Source: Candidatus Moraniibacteriota bacterium
GTDB lineage: Bacteria > Patescibacteriota > Minisyncoccia > Moranbacterales > UBA1568
DNA: 64,000 bases
Assembly: GCA_016699425.1 (NCBI GenBank)
Contig: CP064975.1
Span: 386,979-450,978, forward strand
Reading direction: 5' to 3'
The notes beneath the pieces are model-generated. The model made no database searches, had not been told where the DNA came from, and was given only the letters and a program-made list of their open reading frames with translations. Shown here piece after piece: positions 2,687 through 50,083 of the stretch. Position 1 is the first letter of the stretch. Each line of letters opens with the position of its first letter. Both the position numbers and the translations under genes were made by a program.

Positions 2687-3718
2687 ATGACGCTCGATCG
2701 ACTGGAGGCAATAAAGAAAGAGGCACTCTCCGCGCTCGCCCTGGTGGCGGACGAAGCGGGTCTTCAGGCTTGGGAAAATACGTACCTCGGCCGAAAAAGT
2801 GAGTTCAATACGCTCCTCCGGGGAGTGAAAGAACTCTCGCCCGAGGAACGGAAAAAAGTTGGCGCTGCGGGGAATACTATCAAGCGTGAGCTGTTTGAGG
2901 CGTTCGAAGGAACAAAGAAAAAGAATACAATGACGGTCCGGGCTTCGGATACGGAGCGGATTGATGTGACACTGCCGGGTGGGGGGGATGGTACAGGACA
3001 CTTACACCCGATCACGCGGATCGAGCACGAGATTGAGGATATCTTTGGCTCGATGGGATTTTCAGTGGCCGATGGTCCCGAAGTCGAGAGCGAGTGGTAC
3101 AACTTTGATGCGCTGAATTTTCCACCCGACCACCCTGCGCGCGATATGCAGGACGCCTTCTGGCTCGCCGATACGTGGGGGAAAAAGAAATACTTGCCGC
3201 GTACTCACACGTCTTCCGTCCAGGTTCGGTACATGGAGACGCACAAGCCACCGTTCCAGATCATCATCCCAGGTCGCATCTTCCGTAACGAAGCGACCGA
3301 TGCCTCGCACGAGCATACTTTTCATCAGTTCGAGTGTTTGGTGGTCGGGGATACTGTCTCAGTCGCAAATTTTAAGTCGGTCGCAGAGACGTTCTTCACC
3401 ACATTTTTTCAGCGAGCGACGACGGTGCGGCTTCGGCCAAGTTTCTTTCCCTTCACTGAGCCGTCATTTGAGTTCGATGTAAACTGTCTCCTCTGTAACG
3501 GTCAGGGCTGCCCGGTGTGCAAGGGGACAGGCTGGCTTGAAATCGGTGGCGCCGGCATGGTCCATCAGCATGTCTTCGAAGCCGCCGGGTATCCCAAGAA
3601 TCGCTATCAGGGGTTCGCCTGGGGCTTCGGTCTGACCCGGCTCGCGATGATGAAGTACAAGATTTCCGATATTCGTCTCTTCATGTCGGGGGACCTTCGT
3701 TTTATCCGCCAATTCTAG
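2687..3718 (+). CDS. pheS: Phenylalanyl-tRNA synthetase alpha subunit
   Basis: Class II core with FNFDALNFPPDHPARDMQDAFW and the C-terminal GFAWGFGLTRLAM. Confidence 0.95.
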   Translation: MTLDRLEAIKKEALSALALVADEAGLQAWENTYLGRKSEFNTLLRGVKELSPEERKKVGAAGNTIKRELFEAFEGTKKKNTMTVRASDTERIDVTLPGGGDGTGHLHPITRIEHEIEDIFGSMGFSVADGPEVESEWYNFDALNFPPDHPARDMQDAFWLADTWGKKKYLPRTHTSSVQVRYMETHKPPFQIIIPGRIFRNEATDASHEHTFHQFECLVVGDTVSVANFKSVAETFFTTFFQRATTVRLRPSFFPFTEPSFEFDVNCLLCNGQGCPVCKGTGWLEIGGAGMVHQHVFEAAGYPKNRYQGFAWGFGLTRLAMMKYKISDIRLFMSGDLRFIRQF

Positions 3719-6091: not shown

Positions 6092-6186
6092 ACCAGGCCA
6101 CATCAGATTGGGCCGTGGTTTCTATGTCAAAATAGTGACAAAGCATATTAATTATGCTTCAATATACATGGGACGGCAGCTCTTTA

Positions 6187-6954
6187 CAAAACAGATCAGA
6201 CTACCGCGCTGGCCCTCGTAAAAGAGGGTAGTGAGGAAAGTCCGGACATCGGCCCGCCCCTTTGGTTAGAAAAGGCTTGAGGGAGCTATTTTTCGCCCAA
6301 AGGGGCGGGCAGCAGGTAGCGGGTAACACCCGTCTCTCGTTTCGGCGGGAAGAGGTGCGAGCAGTGACGCCGGAGCCGAAAGGCCGAGGGTTCCTGGACT
6401 GCCATCAGGCAAACCGGGAATAATCCTGTCGCAAGGCAGGAGTGAAACGGCTAAATCCTTATCTCGATGCAAGGTCGCGTCTCGCACCTTTTTTGGAAGC
6501 TTGGATGCATAGTGTGAGTGTATGGGGAAGATTGAGGCGCTTTTGTGCCAGAAATCACCCACACTCATTTCCAAAAAAGGTGCGGGAAGAACCGCAAAGA
6601 TCTCTCTGGCGACAGAGAGGCAAGAGAAATGGTAGTCCCTCGCACCTTTTAGTCTTTACGAGAGCATATGTATTACTTGTATGTGCTGAAGAGTAAGAAG
6701 ACAGATAAGTTTTACATCGGTTATGCTAAAGATCTTCAGCAAAGAATTCTTCAACATAACAATGGAGAGTCTTTAGCCACAAAGTCCGCTATCCCTTGGG
6801 AATTGGTATACTACGAAGCGTATGCTTCTCAGGGATTAGCCAGGAAACGAGAGGCAAAGCTCAAACATCATGGAAAAGGATTCGCGGAACTCAAAAAGAG
6901 AATTCTTGAAGACTAAAAGGTGCGGGGACAGAATCCGGCTTATCGATCTGTTTT
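6187..6954 (+). ncRNA. rnpB: RNase P RNA (bacterial type A-like) with a ~450-nt insertion in the P15-P18 region
   Basis: The P1 helix pairs 5' aaaacagatc (6187-6196) with 3' gatctgtttt (6945-6954). P3 is the hairpin ccctcgtaaaagaggg. The P4 5' strand is GAGGAAAGTCCGGAC. The 3' part GGGACAGAATCCGGCTTATCG matches the universally conserved ACAGAAnCCGGCUUA. The stretch 6470-6918 falls where P15-P18 would normally occupy about 100 nt. Confidence 0.7.
6668..6916 (+). CDS. GIY-YIG nuclease-domain protein (YhbQ/UPF0213-like, 82 aa) encoded inside the rnpB insertion
   Basis: N-terminal YYLYVLKS…KFYIGYAKDLQQRILQHN is the GIY-YIG signature. The C-terminal KGFAEL resembles E. coli YhbQ. The ORF is enclosed by the inverted repeats ctcgcaccttttagtc (6634-6652) and gactaaaaggtgcggg (6911-6926). 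Confidence 0.7.
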   Translation: MYYLYVLKSKKTDKFYIGYAKDLQQRILQHNNGESLATKSAIPWELVYYEAYASQGLARKREAKLKHHGKGFAELKKRILED

Positions 6955-6996
6955 GTACAGAGCCGTCGTCTCGGGGCTTATGTCCCGCGCGTATTT

Positions 6997-8451
6997 TTGC
7001 GTGAAGAAAGCACTAACTCGATATTTGTTAACGGGGTGAAACGATCGGAAATTTATTTCAGCGCCATCCAACTCCCAGTCGACTTTCTCATGATTGTCCT
7101 CGCGGCGCTTTCGGCCTATGCGGTCCGTGACGTGCCGCAGATCCTCGCTCTTCGGCCCAAGCTCTATTCTGTTGATTTCGTCGATTTTCTCCAGGTGACG
7201 CTCATCATCGCGCCGCTGTTCCTCGTTGTGTACGCGATCGAGGGGCTGTACACGATGCGAGCGACCCGAACAATGCTTTCGGAGGCCTTCAAGGTGTTCC
7301 GTGCGACATCGCTTGTCCTGGTGCTCGTCATTGTGACTATTTTCTTGAAGCGGGAATGGTTCTCTTCGCGATTTATCATTCTCGCCGGGTGGTCGTTCAT
7401 GGTGATGTATGTCACGATTGCGCGTTACCTTATCCAGCGTATTCAGAAATACTACCTGGCAAGGAAAGGTGTTGGCGTGCACCGCATCCTCCTTGTCGGT
7501 ACCAATGGAAAAATCGAACGGCTAAAGAAACTTTTTGCGACGCGGCCGGAGCTCGGATATGTGACCGCCGGACAAGTCGAAGCCGTCTCACTCCACACGA
7601 TCAAGGACATCCGTGCCGCTCACGGCATTGATGAGATCATGGTCTGCGATCCGTCGCTAACCGATGATGAGCAGGAAAAGCTCCTCGACTATTGTCAGAT
7701 CAACAACATCACGTTGAAGTATCTCCCAACGACGCGTGAGACCTCGCGATTCACGATGAGTATCTTCAATGGCGAGCCGATTATCGAGTTTCAACACACT
7801 CCGCTTGATGGCTGGGGGAAAATCTTGAAGCGCGCGTTCGATATCGTTGGCGGTGTGTTCTTGACGATCCTGTTTTCACCTATCATGCTCGCGATCGCGA
7901 TTCTGACGAAGCTGGAGGATCCGGATGGTCCGATCATCTATACCAATGAGCGGATTGGTGAAGACGGGGAGAAGATTTCCGTGTTCAAGTTCCGCTATAT
8001 GCAGTGGAAGTGGTGCATCAACAAGAAGAATCCGAACTTTGGAGCCGCGCTCGAATTTGAAAAGCAGCTCATCGCGGAGCGGAGCGTTCGTCAGGGCCCA
8101 CTCTACAAGATCAAGGATGACCCACGCAAGACAAAAGTGGGTGCGTTCATTGAACGTTACTCACTCGATGAGCTCCCGCAGTTCTTCAATGTGTTGCGTG
8201 GGGAAATGAGTCTGGTGGGCCCCCGACCGCATCAAAAGCGCGAGGTCGAGAAATACAGCGAGTACCATCGTCGGCTGCTCACTATCAAACCGGGAATTAC
8301 TGGCATGGCGCAGGTTTCCGGTCGCTCGGATCTTGATTTCGAAGATGAGTTCCGGCTTGATGTCTTCTATATCGAAAATTGGTCCCTCTGGGTTGATATC
8401 GTGGTTTGCCTGAAGACCGCGGGAGCGCTCCTCCGCCGCCGGAAGAACTAA
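6997..8451 (+). CDS. Polyprenyl-phosphate sugar-1-phosphate transferase (WbaP/EpsB 'bacterial sugar transferase' family)
   Basis: Several N-terminal TM segments. The C-terminal catalytic domain carries …FKFRYM…LDELPQFFNVLRGEMSLVGPRP. The exact start codon is uncertain. Confidence 0.8.
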   Translation: MREESTNSIFVNGVKRSEIYFSAIQLPVDFLMIVLAALSAYAVRDVPQILALRPKLYSVDFVDFLQVTLIIAPLFLVVYAIEGLYTMRATRTMLSEAFKVFRATSLVLVLVIVTIFLKREWFSSRFIILAGWSFMVMYVTIARYLIQRIQKYYLARKGVGVHRILLVGTNGKIERLKKLFATRPELGYVTAGQVEAVSLHTIKDIRAAHGIDEIMVCDPSLTDDEQEKLLDYCQINNITLKYLPTTRETSRFTMSIFNGEPIIEFQHTPLDGWGKILKRAFDIVGGVFLTILFSPIMLAIAILTKLEDPDGPIIYTNERIGEDGEKISVFKFRYMQWKWCINKKNPNFGAALEFEKQLIAERSVRQGPLYKIKDDPRKTKVGAFIERYSLDELPQFFNVLRGEMSLVGPRPHQKREVEKYSEYHRRLLTIKPGITGMAQVSGRSDLDFEDEFRLDVFYIENWSLWVDIVVCLKTAGALLRRRKN

Positions 8452-45253: not shown

Positions 45254-46396
45254 TTAGAGGGAAGCGTAGAGTTCACCGTAGTGTCGGGCCGTTTCTCGGA
45301 GGTCGAAATGTGTTTCGGCATAGGTCCGAGCGGTTTGCCCGATTGCTGCCCGAGTATCCGAATTATGCTTTAAATAAAGGATAGTATCGATCAGTGCCTG
45401 GTCATCGAGCCTGGGGATGGTAACAGAAATTTGGTCATTTGAGAACTCTCGAAAGGCTTCCAAGTCAGAGAGGATGACGGGCTTTCCGCAGGCATAGGCC
45501 TCGATGATGACGAGCGGGACGTCGAATTTGCCACGGAGGTCGCCCACAGGAAATGCGATCACATCCGCGGTATTGTAGACGGTGGCCATATCGGCGGTGG
45601 CATTGCCATCGTCGAAGCGGATATGTTCGAGGCAGCCGGCCTGACGGAACCGTTCCCGTACTTCTTCGCGTTTCACTCGATCGGCTTCGTTCTTGATCCG
45701 GCAGGCAAAGAGGAAAATAAACGGTTCAGAGATCGGAGCTGTGAAATGGCGAATGAGCGTTTCGACGAGATAGTCTGTCGCGCCGAGCCGAGTGTATTCG
45801 CCAGGGTAGACGACCAGGAAATCCTCGGGTGTGAGGTTGTATGAATCAAGGACGGCCTGGCTCTTCGGCCGGGGCTGATACTTTTCCAGATCGATGCCGG
45901 GATAGATCCGCTCGACATTGTCGAAGCCGAGCGCATTCAGTTTCGTCTTGGTCGCATCGGTGTAAGTTGCGAGTTGATCTGCGAAGAAAAGGTGTTTGAG
46001 AAGATTTCGAGGGTATCGATCTTCACGAAGTGTCGCGACGGTTTGGATACTTTTAGGACGGAAAGGTGTAAAGTACTTTATGACAAAAGCATTGAAGAGT
46101 GTCGGAGTAAAGAGGTAGTGAACAATGTCGTATTTAAAACTCTGAGCAAATAAATAGAGCGGAAGTCTCGCTTTCTGAAGAAATGGATAATGTGATTTAG
46201 CTCCAGTTTTTTGTTTTGAATAGAGTGGGTGAAGAATGACGTTGGTACCCATATCCTTGAGTCCTTCCGGGGTTGTCAGAACATGCATCGTCAAATCTTC
46301 ATTGCGAATGTTTTTGGCTAAAAAGTACGCAAAGTTTTTTGAGGCTTCATCCCAAGGCGGGACAATCGGTCGGGTCGCGAGGAGGATTTGCTTCAT
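45254..46396 (-). CDS. Glycosyltransferase family 4
   Basis: GT-B fold with IIEAYACGKPVILSDLEAFREF. Confidence 0.8.
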   Translation of the reverse strand: MKQILLATRPIVPPWDEASKNFAYFLAKNIRNEDLTMHVLTTPEGLKDMGTNVILHPLYSKQKTGAKSHYPFLQKARLPLYLFAQSFKYDIVHYLFTPTLFNAFVIKYFTPFRPKSIQTVATLREDRYPRNLLKHLFFADQLATYTDATKTKLNALGFDNVERIYPGIDLEKYQPRPKSQAVLDSYNLTPEDFLVVYPGEYTRLGATDYLVETLIRHFTAPISEPFIFLFACRIKNEADRVKREEVRERFRQAGCLEHIRFDDGNATADMATVYNTADVIAFPVGDLRGKFDVPLVIIEAYACGKPVILSDLEAFREFSNDQISVTIPRLDDQALIDTILYLKHNSDTRAAIGQTARTYAETHFDLRETARHYGELYASL

Positions 46397-46755
46397 AGTG
46401 AGCGATAGATGGTTTCGTCGCGGCCATCGTGCGAGACGGTGATGGTGATACGTCCAGAGACGGGCATGAATGGTATCGAAGGGACGTGTGTCATATCGTT
46501 CCCGGGTTCGACTACGAATACGCCCGTGGCGAGGGTCTGATCATCGGCCGAGATAGTGTAGCGGAAGTCAGCAGTTGTCGTATGGTTTGAGACGACAAAG
46601 TCGAGGCTCGCCGCGTTCTTCGGTTCGGCGAAAGACAAGCTCCACCAGTTTTTCCCAGTGTTCGGATCAAGCCCCCGTTCGTTCACCGAAAACAGGTACG
46701 CGGCCGAAAGCGCAAAGAGAACAATCAAGCCAAAAATGAGGCGTTTTTCAGTCAT
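46393..46755 (-). CDS. Small exported hypothetical protein
   Basis: Start at MTEKRLIFGLIVLFALSAAYLF, a signal anchor. Its stop overlaps the start of the downstream GT4 gene. Confidence 0.45.
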   Translation of the reverse strand: MTEKRLIFGLIVLFALSAAYLFSVNERGLDPNTGKNWWSLSFAEPKNAASLDFVVSNHTTTADFRYTISADDQTLATGVFVVEPGNDMTHVPSIPFMPVSGRITITVSHDGRDETIYRSL

Positions 46756-46843
46756 AGCAGTACCGCTAGTATACTGGGAATAAAGTAATATTTCCACATA
46801 CTCTCAGAACCCGCACGCAAACCCTAAATCCCGTTTCCTCTAC

Positions 46844-46883
46844 CTGTACAAAGTGTGTTACTATAGTACCAGTCTTTGTACAA
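46844..46883. promoter_or_regulatory. Bipartite palindromic operator-like repeat (copy 1): cTGTACAA-N24-TTGTACAA
   Basis: TTGTACAA is a perfect 8-bp palindrome. The two boxes sit 32 bp centre-to-centre, separated by a conserved AGTGTGTTACTA spacer, and overlap the promoter of the regulator gene at 46911. Confidence 0.45.
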
Positions 46884-46910
46884 AGAGAAGTTATTCTATC
46901 CAAGATTCTT

Positions 46911-47516
46911 ATGCATCCGAAAACTCAAGAAGCTATTTGGTACGGAGCTTCAGCCAAACATACGGGTAACATCTCGATCAGTGGAGTGCTCCTCGGTGTC
47001 GTTGGGATGACGGGCCTCGTTGCGATCAGTCTCGTTGCTCCAAACGCTCTGAAACTGCTTCAGGCGATACCCACGCGAAATCGCCGCCGATCAGACAAAA
47101 AGTCTATTGATCAAACCCTAGATAAGCTCATCCAACAGCAGCATATCCATAAGGTACGAAAAAATGGAGCAAGTTTTTATATGCTTACCAAGAAAGGGGC
47201 GGCACAGTTGGCGAAGCTGAGACTCTCGATGGGTGCGCTCACTATTCCAAAAAAATGGGATGAAAAGTGGCGTATAGTGACCTATGATATTAGTGAAAAG
47301 CGACGTTCTAAACGAATACTGTTATTGCGAGCCTTATATGAGGCGGGATTTTATCACCTGCAGGATAGCGTGTGGGTTTATCCGTACCCTTGTCGAGAGC
47401 TCAGTGTGTTACTCAAATTTCACTTCGCGCTGGGGAAAGAAGTCTTGTATATTGAAGCAGCAGAAATTGAATTAGAGCCAAAATTGCTCAAACACTTTGG
47501 CCTACAGAGGAACTGA
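46911..47516 (+). CDS. PaaX-family-like wHTH transcriptional regulator (short, 201 aa)
   Basis: A winged-helix wing GASFYMLTKKG resembles PaaX RSFYSLSDKG. A middle-domain motif KKWDEKWRIVTYDISEKRRSKRILLLRALYEAGFYHLQDSVWVYPYP resembles PaaX AWDGKWLLLLSEGLDKS…LIWQGFGALAPSLMASP. Confidence 0.55.
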   Translation: MHPKTQEAIWYGASAKHTGNISISGVLLGVVGMTGLVAISLVAPNALKLLQAIPTRNRRRSDKKSIDQTLDKLIQQQHIHKVRKNGASFYMLTKKGAAQLAKLRLSMGALTIPKKWDEKWRIVTYDISEKRRSKRILLLRALYEAGFYHLQDSVWVYPYPCRELSVLLKFHFALGKEVLYIEAAEIELEPKLLKHFGLQRN

Positions 47517-47533
47517 TGCTGTGGTTGAGATTT

Positions 47534-47573
47534 ATTGTACAAAGTGTGTTACTACCGTTACTGGATTTGTACA
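47534..47573. promoter_or_regulatory. Bipartite operator-like repeat (copy 2): TTGTACAA-N24-TTGTACAA
   Basis: Same motif and spacing as copy 1. It lies about 25 bp upstream of the -35 of the COG0523 gene's promoter TTGACG-N17-TATGAT. Confidence 0.45.
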
Positions 47574-47634
47574 ATAAAGTGACGGGAGTAGGTTATTGAC
47601 GTATGATTGAGCGCTGCCTATGATGCAGTGACCT

Positions 47635-48684
47635 ATGGTTATGTCTGAGAAACTTTCACCAGTATTCAAGAAGATCCCAGTCACTATCCTGACGGGCTTC
47701 CTCGGCGCCGGCAAGACCACGCTCCTCAACCATATTCTCTCGTCCAAGACCGGTGAGAAGATCGTGGTCATCGTCAATGAATTCGGCGCGGTCGGGATCG
47801 ATGGGGCGTTGGTGGTCGGGGGCGAGGAGCACCTCGTCACGCTCGACAATGGCTGCATCTGCTGCACGGTCCGCAATGACTTGGTCGAGACCCTGACTGA
47901 CCTTCTGAAGCGGAAACTCGGCATGGCAGGAGAAATGGCCGAAGCAGGGGAAAGTGCTGCCCCACTTGTTTTCGATCGGATTGTGATCGAGACCACGGGC
48001 TTGGCTGATCCCATCCCGCTCGTCCAGACATTCATGATGGATGATGTCCTCATGGCAGCCTATGAAATAGCGGCCATCGTCACGGTCGTCGATGCCGTCC
48101 ATATCGAAAAGCAGCTCGGGTACCTGCCCGTAGCAGCCGAGCAGATCGCGCTCGCCGACCTCATCCTCCTGTCCAAGACCGATCTCTTCTTGGGCGAGGG
48201 AGAGAGCGAAGAAAGAAAAAAACGTATGTCTGAGATCGAGTCAAAAATTCAAGCCATCAATCCTGCGGCTCCGATCATAGCGACTGTCATGGGAGTGATC
48301 CCGAATGCCGAGCTCTTCCGCGAGCGGCGTTTCTTTGCGGCACCCGAAACCGTCCAAGGACATGACCACACGAGCCATACACACGGCATCTCGAGCGTTG
48401 TTCTAAAAACAGATAAGTTAATCGATATCGACCGGCTTTATGCCTGGATCGGGGAGCTTCAGAATAGCCTCGGCCCCGACCTCCTCCGCTACAAGGGCAT
48501 CATCTATTCGGACGAGTACCCAGGCAAACACGCTGTCCTGCAGGGTGTCCATGCGCTCTATACCGTCACCCCAGACCGCGAGTGGAAAGAAAATGAAAAA
48601 CGCGAATCCGTCATCGTCGTCATCGGCCAAAACCTCGATCGTGAAGCGATAGAACAAGGATTCAAGCGGTCACTAGCAGACTAA
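47635..48684 (+). CDS. COG0523-family GTPase (CobW/YeiR/ZigA-like metallochaperone)
   Basis: Walker A GFLGAGKTTLLNHIL and the metal-binding CXCC motif GCICCT. A C-terminal CobW_C-like domain is present. Confidence 0.85.
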   Translation: MVMSEKLSPVFKKIPVTILTGFLGAGKTTLLNHILSSKTGEKIVVIVNEFGAVGIDGALVVGGEEHLVTLDNGCICCTVRNDLVETLTDLLKRKLGMAGEMAEAGESAAPLVFDRIVIETTGLADPIPLVQTFMMDDVLMAAYEIAAIVTVVDAVHIEKQLGYLPVAAEQIALADLILLSKTDLFLGEGESEERKKRMSEIESKIQAINPAAPIIATVMGVIPNAELFRERRFFAAPETVQGHDHTSHTHGISSVVLKTDKLIDIDRLYAWIGELQNSLGPDLLRYKGIIYSDEYPGKHAVLQGVHALYTVTPDREWKENEKRESVIVVIGQNLDREAIEQGFKRSLAD

Positions 48685-48698
48685 GAGGCAAAAAGAAG

Positions 48699-48730
48699 AC
48701 GACCTCTGAGGTGGGTCGTCGTAGCTTCGG
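48699..48730 (-). terminator. Intrinsic terminator of the secreted-protein gene A (minus strand)
   Basis: Minus-strand hairpin gacgacccacctcagaggtcgtc followed by ttctttttg. It shares the cgtagcttcggttgaagcg tail with the other two terminator copies. Confidence 0.5.
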
Positions 48731-48750
48731 TTGAAGCGCCTTGGTGAACC

Positions 48751-49119
48751 CTAGTTCACCTTCTCGATCATTTTCAGCGGGCCGCTGGAGCAGGGCGATT
48801 GGCCGCCGCAAGGGCAAAGCTTGCCGAACTCGTTCAGCGCAGCTTGGACGGACGTCCACGAATTCGGCGACGCAGCCTTGACCACGGCCAGATCGACCTT
48901 CTCGCGAAGGTGGCGCGGCTGTCCCTTGAGGTTGGCCAAAGCAAAGGTGATCTCCATCATGGTTTCGTGAGGCTTCTCGTCGAAGACCGCGGCCTTGTAG
49001 TTCGAGATGTTGCCAGCGCCGATACCGGCCGCGCGGCAGATGGCTTCGTTGGTCACAGTCTGTGCCAGGGCAGCGGCAGACATGGTAGCGAGAAGGGCAA
49101 TGAGAAGGAACTTGGACAT
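48751..49119 (-). CDS. Small secreted Cys-containing protein, paralog A (122 aa)
   Basis: Signal peptide MSKFLLIALLATMSAAALA. Conserved blocks EAICRAAGIGAGNISNYKA and ALNEFGKLCPCGG. Confidence 0.6.
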   Translation of the reverse strand: MSKFLLIALLATMSAAALAQTVTNEAICRAAGIGAGNISNYKAAVFDEKPHETMMEITFALANLKGQPRHLREKVDLAVVKAASPNSWTSVQAALNEFGKLCPCGGQSPCSSGPLKMIEKVN

Positions 49120-49546: not shown

Positions 49547-49915
49547 TCAGTCCTTCACCTTCAACGGATTGGTCACCGGCATGGAGCATGGCGCTTGGCC
49601 GCCGCAAGGACAAAGCTTGCCGAACTCGTTCAGCGCGGCTTGGACGGAGGGCCAAGACTTCGGCGAAGCAGCGTTGATCTTGGCGACGTTGACCTTTTCT
49701 TGCAAGTAGCGTGGTTGTTTGGTAAGGCTGACCGTTGCCGACAAGATGACCAGCATCGTCTCGTGGGGTTCCTTGTCGAAGACCGAGGCCTTATAGTTGC
49801 TGATGTTGCCAGCGCCGATACCGGCCGCACGGCAGATGGCCTCGTCAGTCACATCCTGCGCCAGGGCAGTGGCGGACACGAGGGCGAGGGCGGCGATGAT
49901 AAAGAGCTTGAGCAT
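49547..49915 (-). CDS. Small secreted Cys-containing protein, paralog B (122 aa)
   Basis: Start at MLKLFIIAALALVSATALA. It is about 65-70% identical to paralog A, sharing the same ICRAAGIGAGNISNYKA and NEFGKLCPCGG blocks. Confidence 0.6.
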   Translation of the reverse strand: MLKLFIIAALALVSATALAQDVTDEAICRAAGIGAGNISNYKASVFDKEPHETMLVILSATVSLTKQPRYLQEKVNVAKINAASPKSWPSVQAALNEFGKLCPCGGQAPCSMPVTNPLKVKD

Positions 49916-49935
49916 GGAAACCTCCAGTTGTTGAT

Positions 49936-49989
49936 GCCGATGAGAATTCATCGGACTGCATATGATAGCACGTTTTGTGCCATCAGTCA
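49936..49989 (-). promoter_or_regulatory. Sigma70 promoter (TTGACT-N17-TATCAT) plus 5'-UTR hairpin of paralog B
   Basis: Minus-strand read: TTGACTgatggcacaaaacgtgcTATCATatgcagtCCGATGAattcTCATCGGcatcaacaactGGAGGtttccATG. Confidence 0.55.
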
Positions 49990-50083
49990 AACTAAAAAGT
50001 GGCTTTATAGAGCCGTAGTTTTCACTTATTTCTCACCTTGTACTAGTCTTTTTCTGTTACTAGTGAGGCCTGTGTAGGATAGG

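Follow-up and report, generated by a model that had tools for sequence, protein, structure and literature searches.

A small PaaX-like gene bracketed by paired 40-bp palindromes in Patescibacteria: a probable self-contained autorepressor cassette

Results and discussion

A 64,000-nucleotide stretch of the genome of a Candidatus Moraniibacteriota bacterium (assembly GCA_016699425.1, contig CP064975.1, positions 386,979 to 450,978; this whole stretch is called the window below) harbors a gene for a 201-aa PaaX-like protein that is bracketed by two copies of a 40-bp imperfect palindrome, one upstream of the gene and the other shortly past its stop codon. Pairs of the same design, each with a sequence of its own, flank most of the homologous genes that we compared, and we favor, with moderate confidence, the interpretation that the whole is a self-contained cassette, i.e., a minimal PaaX-type autorepressor (mini-PaaX) together with two operators. 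The combination of a PaaX scaffold and PaaX-like operator geometry without an effector domain, a retained Cas2 aspartate, operators that bracket the gene and a self-contained cassette is newly seen here, and the searchable literature yielded no description of the family or of its paired flanking palindromes.

Two palindromes around a regulator gene

The upstream copy reads CTGTACAA-AGTGTGTTACTA-TAGTACCAGTCT-TTGTACAA and the downstream copy TTGTACAA-AGTGTGTTACTA-CCGTTACTGGAT-TTGTACAA, the first base of the latter lying 18 nt past the regulator stop codon. A direct-repeat search recovers the two as a 39-nt repeat (82% identical) and an inverted-repeat search finds each 40-mer to be an imperfect palindrome by itself, with outer arms CTGTACAAAG and CTTTGTACAA around a central core GTTACTATAGTACC upstream, and TTGTACAAA and TTTGTACAA around GTTACTACCGTTAC (without a -10 box) downstream. 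A first-pass annotation of the same DNA had placed two repeats around the gene, with octamers 24 nt apart (32 bp centre to centre); both repeats can be read directly and this spacing is the same in each copy, with the corrections that the repeat measures 40 bp (not ~45 bp) and that the second copy sits 1 nt further to the right. The octamer TTGTACAA occurs three times in the window, always within the two sites (0.46 expected; 2 of 100 shuffles reach three), and AGTGTGTTACTA exactly twice (just 0.03 expected in 64 kb), besides one 11/12 match at 47403-47414. The upstream 40-mer is the sole palindrome in the window that scores at least 11, and no additional copy of the palindrome is found there, i.e., the repeats do not belong to a dispersed family within these 64 kb. 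The arms TTGTACAAAG and CTTTGTACAA form an inverted pair spanning 40 bp, which is the operator geometry of PaaX.

The isolated 11/12 match lies within the regulator gene, where it codes for ELSVLLK. As an internal copy (AGTGTGTTACT) it was considered as a further operator and rejected: it has no arms, it is not kept in the closest orthologue (L081, which reads AGCGTCTTACTC at this place; the loci compared here carry L numbers), and it probably arose by chance.

Palindrome pairs across the family

The comparison of 82 homologous loci (30-40% protein identity), with a shared-repeat score of at least 16 taken as a pair, indicates that the bracketing is a property of the family: upstream and downstream flanks share such a repeat in 62 of the 82 loci, against 1% of mismatched control pairs, and the shared repeats are locus-specific near-palindromes of 36-44 bp. 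Among the closest relatives, both copies are present in the syntenic L081 (85% identity) and also in L083 (63%), despite other neighbouring genes, while L082 (67%) has the central palindrome TGTTACTATAGTAACA on the upstream side of its gene and a related one on the other side. The relatives also altered our view of which parts of the site matter. The best-conserved part in the window clade is the central GTTACTATAGTAC and not the outer TTGTACAA; the self-palindromy of the octamers, previously taken as the key feature, is incidental (the outer arms of relatives are simple inverted repeats), and what had been described as a conserved spacer is really one half of the central core palindrome.

Stacking of 47 well-defined upstream/downstream pairs resolves a common architecture: a core in which C at -3 (98% of sites) and G at +3 flank four central nucleotides (core types CTATAG, ACGRYCGT, CATATG, and CCATGG), AT-rich sequence at ±6-12, and variable but strongly symmetric arms at ±11-19. 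Symmetry reaches at least 85% in the core (±2-4) and the arms and drops to 50-80% at ±6-10, and this low symmetry between core and arms points to a pattern of protein contacts, not to a continuous stem. At arm and core positions, the two copies of one locus are ~0.85 identical however far the regulators have diverged, whereas between loci the identity of the sites declines with regulator divergence, from 0.93 to 0.37. Such likeness within loci, coupled with drift between them, means that the four half-sites co-evolve with the protein, e.g., where L039 has the arm TGTATCAA, each of the four half-sites of L035 has TGTCGCAA. The comparison supports well the assignment of the repeats as putative cognate operators of the encoded protein.

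The pairs are largely confined to their own gene, with just three extra palindrome copies in 56 loci of up to 8.5 kb. L073 carries a third copy at 3357-3394, ~570 bp 5' of the usual upstream copy, and these two copies enclose a divergent open reading frame of ~68 aa, so the palindromes can occasionally enclose a second gene. Two paralogous modules of one metagenome-assembled genome (CAYHQC; L019 and L029) have the same outer arms (CTACAAC...GTTGTAG) and differ in their spacers and in their cores, GCCATGGC vs GCTATAGC, a contrast that hints at a contribution of core and spacer to specificity between paralogues. A metagenome-wide scan for GTACAAANNNTGTTACTA returned at least 120 stretches, and among the matches listed all are single, none has a second arm and none adjoins a PaaX-like gene; they are chance hits that do not inform on a wider regulon.

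Promoter signals set the two copies apart

The upstream core in the window clade, ACTATAGT, contains the -10-like hexamer TATAGT, which is kept in all four orthologue upstream copies; the downstream copies have TACCGT or TATAGG instead (core ACTACCGT in the window and L081, TATAGG in L083). A promoter scan of L081 proposes TTCACT-18-TATAGT. The same asymmetry runs through the family, as the best -10-like hexamer of the right palindrome half scores 4.15 on average in upstream and 2.91 in downstream copies (p=2e-5), and a perfect TATAAT occurs in 8/47 upstream copies vs 0/47 downstream ones. Across the family, palindrome centres lie 17-19 nt from the ATG at the sharp mode of the distribution, with the -10 box 6-9 nt upstream. 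This mode means that the palindrome ends at the start codon and, with a -10 box inside, it suggests a promoter lying wholly within the operator and a leaderless mRNA. The geometry of the window clade differs, with the palindrome centre 47 nt 5' of the ATG. Downstream copies are the better palindromes (p=0.01) and in many loci they begin 0-30 nt past the stop codon, with no T runs behind them.

A PaaX scaffold that lacks the effector domain

The 201-aa protein consists of a hydrophobic N-terminal segment (residues ~23-43), a predicted winged helix (~44-106), and a Cas2-like PaaX_M domain (114-196). PaaX_M (PF20803) is matched at residues 114-186 with an E value of 1.1e-16 (61 bits vs a cut-off of 24) and by 61/61 family members scanned, and TIGR02277 (PaaX) at residues 64-163 with 4e-9 (36.4 bits, far below the equivalog cut-off of 264.55). 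The family profile retrieves E. coli PaaX from the PDB at 2.4e-5 (profile positions 59-152 on PaaX residues 56-146); the profile was needed here, as a single-sequence phmmer search returned just spurious acetyltransferase matches. The AlphaFold (AF2) model has a mean confidence (pLDDT) of 77, with low values for residues 1-60, and shows the H-H-H-beta-beta order of a winged helix. Its top Foldseek matches are 8a39 (E. coli PaaX, an alignment of 202 columns), 3kfw (Rv0674), and 3l09, followed by Cas2 proteins and small winged-helix proteins. The winged-helix domain PF07848 is not matched by the window protein at E<=1 and is matched weakly by 8/61 relatives (best 0.007). The regulator is thus PaaX-related, as the first-pass annotation had proposed, and the missing C-terminal domain is borne out as well, with no Pfam match to PaaX_C (PF08223) and a chain that stops ~15 residues past PaaX_M. 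The protein is not truncated, however, since it is a full-length member of a family of ~190 aa.

Two further features recur in this family. The aspartate of Cas2 strand beta1 (D126, in a YDI motif) is invariant in the family alignment and is missing from the aligned position of E. coli PaaX and Rv0674. Pfam Cas2 is matched by 51/61 members, while the window protein itself stays below the Cas2 thresholds (PF09827 16.8 vs 23.8 bits; TIGR01573 17.5 vs 24.5), and PADLOC reports weak Cas2 matches and no more for it. The N-terminal hydrophobic stretch of 19 residues (Kyte-Doolittle mean 2.0-2.5 across the family) is followed by an A-P-N motif that is invariant in all family members (window 46911-47040, residues 1-43). 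Its hydropathy is that of a membrane anchor, yet its position is probably that of helices H1/H2 in the winged helix of PaaX.

The family comprises 108 close clusters, or 829 clusters at 50% identity when matches at E<=1e-30 are taken, and one scan recovered 114 genomic relatives, with several paralogues in some genomes. Nearly all named matches come from Patescibacteria, to which the family appears to be confined. Searches of Rfam, PADLOC, and PHROGs gave nothing informative, including no Rfam match for the palindromes. Neither the genes around the regulator in the window nor the commonest Pfam families of 76 downstream neighbours include paa genes; in annotations the regulator should be called neither a phenylacetate regulator nor a metal regulator.

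A proposed mode of action

E. coli PaaX recognizes the operator TGATTC-N27-GAATCA (39 bp in total) and represses its own promoter, Px, by steric hindrance (PMC9493321). The window palindromes share the span and the inverted-arm geometry of this site, in line with the widely spaced bipartite operator that had been proposed for them. By analogy, we postulate that the 201-aa protein, i.e., a winged helix joined to a Cas2-like dimerisation domain with no effector domain, is a DNA-binding repressor that would sit as a dimer, or a dimer of dimers, on inverted outer arms ~31 bp (about three helical turns) apart on one face of the helix, and would additionally contact the central C-N4-G core. Bound to the upstream operator, which overlaps the gene's own promoter, it would occlude RNA polymerase and shut off transcription; in the window's own clade the central TATAGT is likely to be the -10 box, and in most relatives a TATAAT in the right half would serve a leaderless ATG at the palindrome end. 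This part of the proposal, a minimal PaaX-type autorepressor that acts on a 40-bp operator and, through the upstream site, on its own expression (negative autoregulation), we regard as rather likely. The downstream operator may be an auxiliary high-affinity site that loops to the upstream site ~650 bp away, raises the local concentration and reinforces autorepression; it may also be a roadblock or insulator, perhaps of protein plus hairpin, that shields the neighbour gene from read-through. That it has one of these roles, or both, is a tentative suggestion. Palindrome, gene, and palindrome would then make up a self-contained cassette set between unrelated housekeeping genes of Patescibacteria.

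Several points weigh against this interpretation. About a quarter of the loci are without a clear repeat pair. Some copy pairs differ by compensatory symmetric changes (C..G to G..C in L050 and two such pairs in L034), which a hairpin or cruciform constraint would likewise predict. In the window, the promoter scan finds no strong sigma-70 site on the + strand across the upstream copy and leaves TATAGT unflagged; the earlier claim that this copy overlaps the regulator's promoter is plausible by virtue of this -10-like hexamer, which is lost downstream. Looping would require an oligomer larger than a dimer. The retained D126 leaves room for an enzymatic role, which may exist, and the N-terminus, modelled at low confidence, might be a membrane anchor or have a role in oligomerisation.

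The closest known counterpart is the PaaX of E. coli and Pseudomonas (TIGR02277; 8a39, 3l09), which is both the best structural and the best profile match: in both a winged helix, predicted in the window protein, precedes a Cas2-like domain, and the PaaX operator, like the palindromes, has two inverted arms ~27 bp apart within a span of ~39-40 bp. Unlike PaaX, the window protein ends without an effector (phenylacetyl-CoA) domain, lacks paa genes nearby and has a score (36 bits against 264) that does not qualify it as PaaX; its proposed operator has an extra conserved central core and two copies that bracket the gene, the Cas2 beta1 aspartate is kept, the N-terminus is strongly hydrophobic and the family is seemingly limited to Patescibacteria.

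Bracketing operators are familiar from the lambda immunity region, where cI-rexAB lies between OR and OL and a CI octamer closes a loop: one operator overlaps the promoter of the repressor gene and the distal one strengthens regulation via DNA looping. The protein fold is unrelated, however, and the lambda operators are tripartite arrays of 17-bp sites that also control the lytic promoters, whereas the mini-PaaX sites are single 40-bp palindromes for which looping is our proposal.

The transcriptional regulation of the mostly uncultivated Patescibacteria (Candidate Phyla Radiation, CPR) is almost unexplored. From sequence alone, this family offers dozens of putative small repressors naturally paired with a 40-bp operator, many of them with the promoter embedded in the operator and an apparently leaderless start. 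Such pairs can be tested in vitro or in E. coli and could provide orthogonal parts for synthetic biology. The family also illustrates how a PaaX scaffold may work without an effector domain, and it raises the questions of why a second, better operator lies behind the stop codon and why the Cas2 aspartate has been retained.

A mobile cassette as an alternative

The module could instead be a mobile or selfish cassette whose palindromes are recombination or cleavage sites (cf. REP/RAYT, IS200/IS605 ends, attC, Xer/dif) and whose winged-helix and Cas2-like protein would move or maintain the unit as a site-specific nuclease or recombination factor. Its boundaries are suggestive. In the locus pairs L032/L049, L039/L049, L048/L071, L003/L008, and L024/L030 the outer edge of the upstream palindrome marks the start of the homology, which stops at or within ~30 nt of the downstream one and gives way to unrelated flanks; the downstream edge is likewise bounded in L019/L023 (95% DNA identity), where the 5' end of L019 is missing. 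The genes next to close regulators are often not homologous, the neighbouring genes are unrelated housekeeping genes, and the multiple paralogues per genome, the Cas2 signature (invariant aspartate and Pfam matches) and the compensatory changes between copies would all fit as well.

The window locus itself is polymorphic. The window and L081 have a segment of ~798 bp, made up of the gene, its two palindromes and short flanks, that is missing from six syntenic Moraniibacteriota relatives (L205-L210); it sits exactly between the -35 boxes of back-to-back divergent promoters. These empty-site loci share the order RtcB, glycosyltransferase, small secreted protein, and COG0523, with neither a PaaX-like gene nor a solo palindrome; only 80-100 bp separate their small secreted-protein gene from COG0523, and in the five closer loci ~10 nt lie between the promoters of these genes, which are arranged back to back. 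RtcB of the window shares 90-91% identity with its counterparts in the empty-site genomes and 74% with the one of L081. Between window and L081, synonymous divergence (dS) is saturated for the regulator (1.98) as well as for RtcB (1.85), so the module is old in both lineages and a recent horizontal transfer between them, which we had considered, can be set aside; the higher amino-acid identity of the regulator (85% vs 74%) is due to purifying selection. Parsimony does not decide between a clean loss of the module from the sister lineage and two separate gains.

Against mobility, searches with Pfam, NCBIfam, PADLOC, and PHROGs found no transposase, integrase, or HUH domain, and no target-site duplication is seen outside the palindromes (longest common substring 4.88 on average vs 4.81 in the null). 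Many orthologous modules are stably syntenic (L047/L056/L059/L061/L068, L018/L040, L055/L060) and the regulator, with a dS of ~2.0, is old at its site. The module resembles REP/RAYT, IS200/IS605, and pdif units in having a single gene flanked by a palindrome pair, homology that ends there and a presence/absence polymorphism, but it has no HUH, tyrosine, or Xer recombinase, and its palindromes are locus-specific and not dispersed. The -10 box is systematically confined to the upstream copy, i.e., the embedded promoter is a regulatory signature, and the prototype structure, that of E. coli PaaX, belongs to a plain repressor. We consider a mobile cassette unlikely, though it is the chief unconventional reading that we keep, and the same applies to a nuclease or recombination factor as its product.

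A variant of this idea would build on Cas2, as a novel type of autonomous cassette in Patescibacteria in which a winged-helix-guided protein with the metal-binding aspartate of Cas2 recognizes hairpin- or cruciform-forming 40-bp repeats around its own gene for maintenance, excision/insertion, or insulation. The central domain of the window protein is homologous to Cas2, with the YDI/FDI aspartate and the KRR and Q-SV motifs kept, and the flanking repeats, at 36-44 bp and palindromic, resemble CRISPR repeats in size. In contrast to Cas2 systems, the score of the protein is under the Pfam cut-off for Cas2, it is the gene itself that the repeats bracket, nothing points to integration chemistry, and no cas1, CRISPR array or spacers occur near the gene (repeat search of 46000-49000 and domain scan of the open reading frames). 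If true, it would be a Cas2-based relative of repeat-associated selfish elements, possibly informative on the partnership of Cas2 with palindromic repeats; we find it improbable.

Neighbouring genes and the COG0523 question

In the first-pass annotation, the downstream copy was a possible operator for the adjacent cobW-like COG0523 metallochaperone gene and possibly for the secreted-protein genes further on. The copy does lie just 5' of the promoter of that gene, ending ~21 bp from the -35 box of a good promoter; L081 has the same arrangement, and the promoter could be modulated, or read-through into it stopped, by DNA looping or by protein sitting on the site. The site does not overlap the promoter, however, and its distance to the -35 box is unequal in the window and L081, i.e., helical phase is not kept. 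The gene downstream is not COG0523 in closely related orthologues, which have YchF (L083) or a metallo-beta-lactamase-fold protein (L082). Across the family, the next gene is convergent in 30/82 loci, with the palindrome still present, the downstream genes are heterogeneous housekeeping genes (L9, translational GTPases, SecA, MetRS, RecA, RNase), and cobW is found in the window alone among 76 downstream neighbours scanned. All six empty-site relatives keep COG0523 in the absence of regulator and palindrome, and the five closer ones also keep its promoter (TTGACG -35, with one change in L207, and TATCAT as -10). Gene and promoter thus function without the module, and these findings lend no support to the view that the site exists to gate the metallochaperone. 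The genes for secreted proteins lie more than 1 kb away on the other strand and show no link to the palindromes. Control of these neighbours by the downstream copy is, in our opinion, unlikely. Zur-type control of COG0523 was considered as well, and no Zur box is obvious by eye (no scan aimed at it was made).

Hairpins as an alternative

Finally, the palindromes might serve mainly as RNA 3'-end, terminator or insulator hairpins, or as DNA cruciforms, with gene conversion, and not recognition by the protein, holding the copies similar. Strong RNA hairpins are predicted (-21 kcal/mol, z -2.7, for the downstream copy of the window; -31, z -10, in L035; -24, z -6.5, in L027), and the position past the stop codon, the more perfect symmetry of the downstream copy and the compensatory changes would suit this role. 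Yet no U tract follows the hairpins, the terminator scan is negative at both sites of the window, symmetry is lowest in what would be mid-stem (±6-10), and in most relatives the upstream copy would not be transcribed whole, since the -10 box lies inside it. Rfam, as noted, has no match, and a hairpin role explains neither the invariant C/G at ±3 nor a locus-specific sequence that tracks the divergence of the protein. We regard it as improbable, and an autorepressor with two operators is the reading that we retain.

Features of the locus and minor observations

The features discussed above are collected in Table 1; the two flanking promoters are context and not part of the module.

Table 1 Positions of the palindromes, the regulator gene, and adjacent features in the window
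Feature	Position	Strand	Basis
Upstream 40-bp imperfect palindrome, proposed operator	46844..46883		repeat and palindrome searches; kept 5' of orthologues in L081, L082, L083
Downstream 40-bp imperfect palindrome, second operator copy (proposed)	47535..47574		repeat searches; kept 3' of orthologues in L081, L083
Gene of the mini-PaaX-like protein, 201 aa	46911..47516	+	open reading frame, Pfam, NCBIfam, AlphaFold model, Foldseek
TATAGT, candidate -10 box of the regulator's own promoter	46862..46867	+	centre of the upstream palindrome; putative
Segment of ~798 bp (palindrome, gene, palindrome, short flanks)	46798..47595		alignments; boundaries approximate
COG0523 promoter, TTGACG-17-TATGAT (context)	47596..47624	+	sigma-70-like promoter scan
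Promoter-like TGGAAA-17-TATACT of the divergent small secreted-protein gene (context)	46768..46796	-	kept in closer module-less relatives

Further downstream, two small secreted-protein paralogues stand in tandem (48751-49119 and 49547-49990, both on the - strand); neither has a Pfam match, and they have the motif ...AICRAAGIGAGNISNYKA.VFD..PHETM.... in common. In L207, a reverse-transcriptase (RVT_1) gene (6101-7441, - strand) lies ~1 kb 3' of COG0523 and is not present in the other syntenic loci. The glycosyltransferase gene of the window (45254-46396, - strand) is a recombinant mosaic: the N-terminal ~130 aa of its product are 93% identical to the L081 orthologue (dS 0.75) and ~50% to L205/L207, the C-terminal part is 78-79% identical to L205/L207 and 59% to L081, and the breakpoint falls near aa 130-150, at about window positions 45950-46010.

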